Below are positions 39,949-40,587 of a stretch of DNA of 60,886 nt, one piece after another (the first letter of the stretch is position 1; every line of letters begins with the position of its first letter). Source of the stretch: Escherichia coli. GTDB taxonomy: Bacteria > Pseudomonadota > Gammaproteobacteria > Enterobacterales > Enterobacteriaceae. The stretch lies in NCBI RefSeq assembly GCF_003334385.1, contig NZ_QOWN01000028.1; one strand, given 5' to 3'. The translations under genes were made by a program, and so were the position numbers. The notes below the pieces were generated by a model. That model did not search any database. It was not told the origin of the DNA and saw nothing but the letters and a program-made list of their open reading frames with translations.

Positions 39949-40125
39949 GTGAAACAAAGCGAGTTCAGACGTTGGCTCGAATCTCAGGGCGTCGATGTAG
40001 CGAATGGCAGCAACCATTTGAAACTCAGGTTTCATGGGAGGCGCAGTGTCATGCCGCGTCACCCCTGCGATGAGATTAAAGAACCATTGCGTAAAGCAAT
40101 CCTGAAACAACTCGGTTTGAGTTAA
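39949..40125 (+). CDS. hicA: Type II toxin HicA (mRNA interferase, 58 aa)
   Basis: Not in the ORF track. Hand translation from GTG 39949 (GGCAGGGAGG site upstream): MKQSEFRRWLESQGVDVANGSNHLKLRFHGRRSVMPRHPCDEIKEPLRKAILKQLGLS*. Confidence 0.85.
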   Translation: MKQSEFRRWLESQGVDVANGSNHLKLRFHGRRSVMPRHPCDEIKEPLRKAILKQLGLS

Positions 40126-40149
40126 TCGCCAATTAAAAAGGTTAATGAC

Positions 40150-40587
40150 ATGCGAGAGACAGTCGAAATTATGCGTTATCCCGTCACTCTTACACCCGCG
40201 CCGGAAGGCGGTTATATGGTTTCTTTTGTGGATATCCCTGAAGCGTTGACCCAGGGCGAAACTGTCGCTGAAGCGATGGAAGCGGCAAAAGATGCTTTAC
40301 TGACCGCATTTGATTTTTATTTTGAAGATAACGAACTTATCCCTTTACCTTCGCCATTAAATAGTCACGATCACTTTATTGAAGTACCTTTGAGCGTCGC
40401 CTCTAAGGTATTGCTGTTAAATGCTTTTTTACAGTCAGAAATCACTCAGCAAGAGTTAGCCAGGCGAATTGGCAAACCTAAACAGGAGATTACTCGCCTA
40501 TTTAACTTGCATCATGCGACAAAAATCGACGCCGTCCAGCTCGCGGCAAAGGCGCTTGGCAAAGAGTTATCGCTGGTGATGGTTTAA
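40150..40587 (+). CDS. hicB: Type II antitoxin HicB (DNA-binding)
   Basis: 145-aa ORF starting 25 nt after the hicA stop, with an AAGG site 8 nt upstream; an alternative ATG at 40171 gives 138 aa. Confidence 0.85.
   Translation: MRETVEIMRYPVTLTPAPEGGYMVSFVDIPEALTQGETVAEAMEAAKDALLTAFDFYFEDNELIPLPSPLNSHDHFIEVPLSVASKVLLLNAFLQSEITQQELARRIGKPKQEITRLFNLHHATKIDAVQLAAKALGKELSLVMV

Follow-up and report, generated by a model that had tools for sequence, protein, structure and literature searches.

The hicAB operon of Escherichia coli K-12 (b4532/b1438; PDB 6HPB, 6HPC and 6U0I) is an already known model system, with published accounts of its toxin activity, its structure and its regulation by two promoters. 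In the classification of Gerdes (2024) it represents Class 3, in which the toxin gene comes first and HicB carries a C-terminal HTH. Reviews describe HicA toxins as small single-domain proteins of 50-100 amino acids, and E. coli HicA as a ribosome-independent RNase with a dsRBD fold, whose ectopic production is bacteriostatic and for which His23 is the sole known catalytic residue. In crystal structure 6HPB, HicB is fully folded and covers this catalytic histidine, and the HicAB complex is an A2B2 heterotetramer that is dimerised via the HTH domains. Starvation for amino acids or carbon raises hicAB transcription in a way that depends on Lon, and two promoters have been described: P1, which has a CRP-S site, depends on CRP-Sxy and yields an mRNA for both proteins, and P2, which lies near the hicA start and is repressed by HicB dimers that bind an inverted repeat, hicO. 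Transcripts from P2 are truncated at the ribosome-binding site of hicA and yield HicB only. The physiological role of chromosomal hicAB is still unsettled in the literature.

Two further groups of systems are instructive for comparison. RHH-type HicAB pairs ("Class 4"), such as Yersinia pestis HicA3B3, Burkholderia pseudomallei HicAB and Streptococcus pneumoniae HicBA, likewise have a dsRBD-fold RNase as HicA and a HicB that represses the operon at palindromic operators until excess HicA lifts the repression. They differ in that the DNA-binding domain of HicB is a ribbon-helix-helix rather than the HTH of the E. coli protein, in that they assemble into hetero-octamers or hexamers rather than A2B2, and in that B. 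pseudomallei HicB is rearranged by HicA binding whereas E. coli HicB is not. The second group comprises Haemophilus influenzae toxTA and E. coli mqsRA, higBA and rnlAB, which are, like hicAB, toxin-first type II systems with an extra or internal promoter for the antitoxin only. The toxTA operon also shares a CRP-S (CRP-Sxy) promoter with hicAB, but the proteins of all four have an unrelated fold (for example RelE/ParE-like) and no sequence homology to HicAB.

The hicAB operon and its strain setting

The DNA analysed here (the window, 60,886 nucleotides in all) is E. coli chromosome and is 99.97% identical to K-12 MG1655 over 35 kb. The closest strain was SCU-104, with 100% identity over 39700-40700 and 99.93% over 41 kb, and a megablast search with 39700-40700 returned a match in 5416 of 5426 complete E. 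coli genomes. In its proteins, its flanks (yncJ and ydcR), its upstream region and its gene order the locus is the same as K-12 hicAB, and the single difference in the 1-kb stretch around it is a synonymous base in hicB at 40335, where the window has GAA and K-12 has GAG. The genes and protein domains that we refer to throughout are as follows.

39949-40125, plus strand: hicA, a 58-amino-acid ORF with a GTG start; RefSeq coordinates identical in SCU-104 and K-12 MG1655
40171-40587, plus strand: hicB as annotated, 417 nt and 138 amino acids, starting at Met8 of the long ORF; RefSeq, SCU-104 and K-12
40150-40587, plus strand: longest hicB ORF, 145 codons with an ATG start
40150-40170, plus strand: optional seven-codon N-terminal extension of HicB (MRETVEI), opening with an in-frame ATG; absent from RefSeq
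about 40177-40371, plus strand: HicB-like (partial RNase H) toxin-binding domain, from Pfam
about 40432-40572, plus strand: C-terminal Xre-type HTH of HicB, from Pfam

Sequence comparison left little doubt about the identity of both genes. HicA was identical at 58 of 58 residues to 6HPB_A ("mRNA interferase toxin HicA", E=1.9e-36), matched Pfam PF07927 HicA_toxin over residues 5-57 (E=3.7e-7) and fell in PHROG 353 ("toxin", E=8.7e-11). With 58 amino acids and one domain it lies within the size range of the family, its identity with the solved chain 6HPB_A assigns it the dsRBD alpha-beta-beta-beta-alpha fold, and the catalytic His23 is present, encoded by CAT at 40015-40017. The 145-residue HicB was 100% identical to PDB 6U0I ("Antitoxin HicB"), and its residues 8-145 were identical to chain B of both 6HPB and 6HPC. 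In the numbering of the long ORF, its N-terminal HicB-like domain matched PF15919 HicB_lk_antitox at residues 10-74 (E=1.3e-7) and its C-terminal Xre-type HTH matched PF01381 HTH_3 at residues 95-141 (E=2.8e-7); the protein also fell in PHROG 497 ("HicB-like", E=2e-35). The toxin gene comes first and hicB lies directly downstream in the same orientation; a promoter and terminator scan of 39400-40750 placed no terminator-like site between them. An NCBIfam search returned no family for either protein. PADLOC gave no match for HicA and only weak ones for HicB, over the C-terminal, HTH-containing residues 67-133 (E of at least 0.0018), so that the databases do not support assignment to a named anti-phage system.

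These data identify the locus, with a probability of about 0.97, as an intact chromosomal E. coli hicAB type II toxin-antitoxin operon. The support that comes directly from the sequence consists of gene identity, domains, gene order, intactness, His23, a palindrome, an extended -10 element and a Shine-Dalgarno sequence. A preliminary description of this DNA had already named a type II hicAB pair with a 58-residue, GTG-initiated HicA, and had proposed a search with HicA and HicB profiles together with a toxicity and rescue assay. The pair was confirmed, since its proteins are identical to the crystallised K-12 proteins and the Pfam families and RefSeq names agree; the RefSeq coordinates of hicA are those of the proposed ORF; and the profile search recovered PF07927, PF15919 and PF01381. 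The assay has in effect been run in published work on the identical K-12 proteins, where HicA is bacteriostatic and HicB covers His23.

Judged by its sequence, the window belongs to a K-12-like lineage, but its host is not K-12 itself, because the window aligns straight through the point in ydbA at which IS30C is inserted in K-12 (about 1127-1181). In K-12, ydbA is interrupted by IS2D and IS30C and is a pseudogene; in SCU-104, which is 99.985% identical over window positions 1-19750, the same gene (window 1-4676) is annotated as one unbroken CDS, and by that annotation IS2D is missing from the ydbA of the window as well. Three other features of the window were recorded in passing. The glyceraldehyde-3-phosphate dehydrogenase paralogue gapC (20376-21376, minus strand) is annotated in SCU-104 as a pseudogene with a frameshift and an internal stop, as it is in K-12. 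The small RNA RydC (22106-22169, minus strand) gave a full-length Rfam match of 92.5 bits and adjoins cybB as in K-12. A VgrG type VI secretion tip-protein gene (about 58635-60886, plus strand) begins after yncH in the SCU-104 annotation and runs beyond the end of the window.

Translation starts of hicA and hicB

The GTG start of hicA is well supported. It is preceded by a strong ribosome-binding site, the crystallised HicA begins MKQSEF, and a plasmid homologue from Arsenophonus, in an operon with a HicB of 43% identity, shows the matching arrangement GGAGG-N4-GTGAAAC at its start.

39939-39944, plus strand: Shine-Dalgarno sequence GGGAGG of hicA, separated from the GTG by 4 nt; pairing energy with the 16S rRNA tail -11.1 kcal/mol

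The start of hicB is less clear-cut. The preliminary description had placed HicB 24 nt after HicA, which holds for the longest ORF (ATG at 40150); the annotation, which begins HicB at Met8 (40171), leaves a spacer of 45 nt. Both starts have weak Shine-Dalgarno-like elements, AAGG before 40150 (-3.4 kcal/mol, 7 nt) and GAGA before 40171 (-3.0 kcal/mol, 13 nt), and the sequence alone would leave the choice undecided, while comparison favours Met8. That HicB is instead, or additionally, translated from the upstream ATG as a 145-residue protein with a 24-nt spacer is the alternative that best survives, although we consider it unlikely. This ATG opens the longest ORF, its AAGG is better spaced than the GAGA while the pairing energies are similar, and a 145-residue form has been produced and crystallised (6U0I). 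Yet Met8 is the start in RefSeq, in K-12 (NP_415955.2) and in 6HPB, the structure of the HicAB complex, and the Pfam HicB domain starts only at residue 10 of the long ORF. Moreover, HicB homologues on plasmids of Arsenophonus, Klebsiella and Piscirickettsia begin one to five residues before a conserved YP motif and lack an equivalent of MRETVEI, although their annotated starts are partly homology-driven themselves. In the Arsenophonus ORF there is no in-frame ATG between the annotated start and the nearest upstream stop codons, and in the Piscirickettsia ORF a stop lies eight codons upstream of the start.

Somewhat more doubtful again is the idea that both in-frame ATGs, which lie 21 nt apart, are functional and give a 145-residue and a 138-residue HicB, possibly in proportions that differ between the P1 and P2 transcripts. 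Both forms have been crystallised and only the short one is annotated.

Candidate operator, promoters and regulation

The 221-nt region between yncJ and hicA contains two elements whose arrangement resembles the published control region.

39899-39916, not assigned to a strand: candidate hicO operator, GTAAACACTAATGTTTAC, a perfect inverted repeat GTAAACA-CTAA-TGTTTAC with 7-nt arms and a 4-nt spacer
39922-39930, plus strand: candidate extended -10 element of P2, TGaTATACT, read by eye; predicted transcription start at about 39936-39938

The candidate operator is the longest inverted repeat in this gap and the only one with operator-like geometry, the other two repeats being 6-nt self-overlapping palindromes. 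The predicted P2 start abuts the Shine-Dalgarno sequence of hicA. We infer the coordinates of both elements by mapping descriptions in the secondary literature onto the sequence, and the fit to the published description is close. A second short inverted repeat with the same 4-nt spacer length, TGAAAC-TCAG-GTTTCA, was noticed within hicA at 40019-40034 (plus strand); its half-sites are in another register than those of the candidate operator, and it is probably due to chance.

Automated searches of the upstream region were less productive. A generic -35/-10 scan reported no promoter upstream of hicA, and no terminator was reported in 39400-40750. Scans for CRP-S (TGCGA-N6-TCGCA) and CRP sites gave no convincing P1 CRP-S site, the best matches (39730, 39793 and 39795) carrying three to four mismatches. 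Comparison of the candidate operator with the plasmid homologues of Arsenophonus, Klebsiella and Piscirickettsia was uninformative, as the inverted repeats upstream of those operons are unrelated in sequence.

If the locus behaves as the literature on the identical K-12 proteins describes, HicA in excess would cleave mRNA without the ribosome and bring growth to arrest, and HicB, a two-domain antitoxin, would neutralise it by direct binding. Because the toxin gene comes first, an excess of antitoxin would be secured by the two promoters. Transcription from the upstream, CRP-Sxy-dependent P1 would give an mRNA for both HicA and HicB; whenever HicA came to exceed HicB, P2 would be derepressed, and its transcript, starting at the hicA ribosome-binding site, would for that reason yield only HicB. 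Turnover of HicB would be due to Lon.

Neighbouring elements and alleles of the locus across E. coli

RefSeq names the genes around the locus yncJ, hicA, hicB and ydcR, and a 468-codon ORF from 40666 (plus strand) follows hicB. The preliminary description had set the pair next to both yncJ and a REP element. The first of these neighbours is correct and immediate; the REP element is genuine, but yncJ stands between it and hicA, and the distance to the hicA start is about 460 nt.

39497-39727, minus strand: yncJ, 76 amino acids, DUF2554; divergent neighbour, outside the toxin-antitoxin module
39454-39488, minus strand: single REP element between the convergent rlhA and yncJ, outside the toxin-antitoxin module

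The REP element is an extragenic, imperfect palindrome of about 35 nt that folds into a hairpin of -19.2 kcal/mol. Its identity was settled by the 13-nt core and a genome-wide probe, a 30-nt consensus pattern having missed it through a 1-nt difference in length: the 46-nt probe matched in all 5426 genomes, and in 5427 records it had at least 40 places in each. REP features are absent from the current RefSeq record of K-12.

Several other mobile or toxin-related elements lie in the same part of the window.

22585-22734, minus strand: hokB, SCU-104 annotation
22729-22880, minus strand: sok, Rfam RF01794
33887-35528: IS609 remnant, a tnpA pseudogene and insQ, SCU-104 annotation
48052-48225: ortT, SCU-104 annotation

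The Rfam sok match lies on the strand of hokB and mokB (minus), whereas K-12 annotates sokB on the plus strand of the same stretch (L009, 23120-23176); either the Rfam model and the annotation disagree or the model covers the hok leader.

The preliminary description had listed these elements together with hicAB as a number of addiction or stress modules lying within some 25 kb. The list is accurate, hokB to ortT measuring 25.6 kb, but a linkage among them does not follow from it, with about 25 ordinary genes in between. A functional link that would make hicAB, hokB/sokB, ortT and the IS609 remnant one stress or addiction island is very improbable. All four do fall within that distance, and the G+C content of hicAB (44-46%, against 50-54% in the flanks) is compatible with a separate horizontal acquisition. 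However, the intervening genes are unrelated chromosomal ones (for example trg, opgD, rimL, tehAB, rlhA, ydcSTUV and patD), the modules are of differing types (type I, type II, an orphan toxin and a transposon remnant), the genes follow the order that is normal for the K-12 chromosome, and the hicAB deletion allele described below takes only 444 bp and leaves the neighbours untouched. A 4.6-Mb genome carries a few dozen toxin loci, so that by a rough estimate one such 25-kb trio at some point along it is unsurprising. Nothing suggests that the proximity of these modules is more than coincidence.

Among the 5426 complete E. coli genomes, some hicAB match was found in 5350 and one of at least 80% coverage in 4254, and two deletion alleles were common. 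The first, an identical 444-bp deletion corresponding to window positions 39905-40348, was counted with a junction-specific 40-nt probe and occurs in 1088 genomes (20%). It starts inside the candidate hicO and removes P2, hicA and the toxin-binding N-terminal half of hicB, leaving an HTH-only hicB that is annotated as a pseudogene; the junction has 1 nt of microhomology (comparison with L004, NZ_CP124500.1). The second, which removes 22 bp of hicA (window 40066-40087) and lies between TGCG direct repeats, is common to 606 of the 5426 genomes (11%) and frameshifts the toxin while hicB stays intact (comparison with L005, NZ_CP035832.1). In L005, the one strain with this deletion that was examined, the candidate P2 -10 hexamer TATACT also reads TATGCT. 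An intact pair can thus be present in at most about 67% of genomes. These alleles agree with the published picture of decaying E. coli chromosomal toxin-antitoxin loci.

Common as such alleles are, and well documented as the decay of these loci is in general, we give still less credence to the view that the pair in the window is itself in decay and no longer functional, as it is in many other strains of E. coli, and reject it, since neither hicA nor hicB contains a frameshift or stop, both ORFs have their full length and encode exactly the proteins that are functional in K-12, and the upstream region is identical to that of K-12.

As a discovery, the finding of hicAB in this DNA is a minor one; what is useful in it is the annotated spacer of 45 nt, the placement of the REP element away from the operon, and the state of the allele. 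Across the species the locus is visibly in decay, and the strain from which the window comes has the intact allele.
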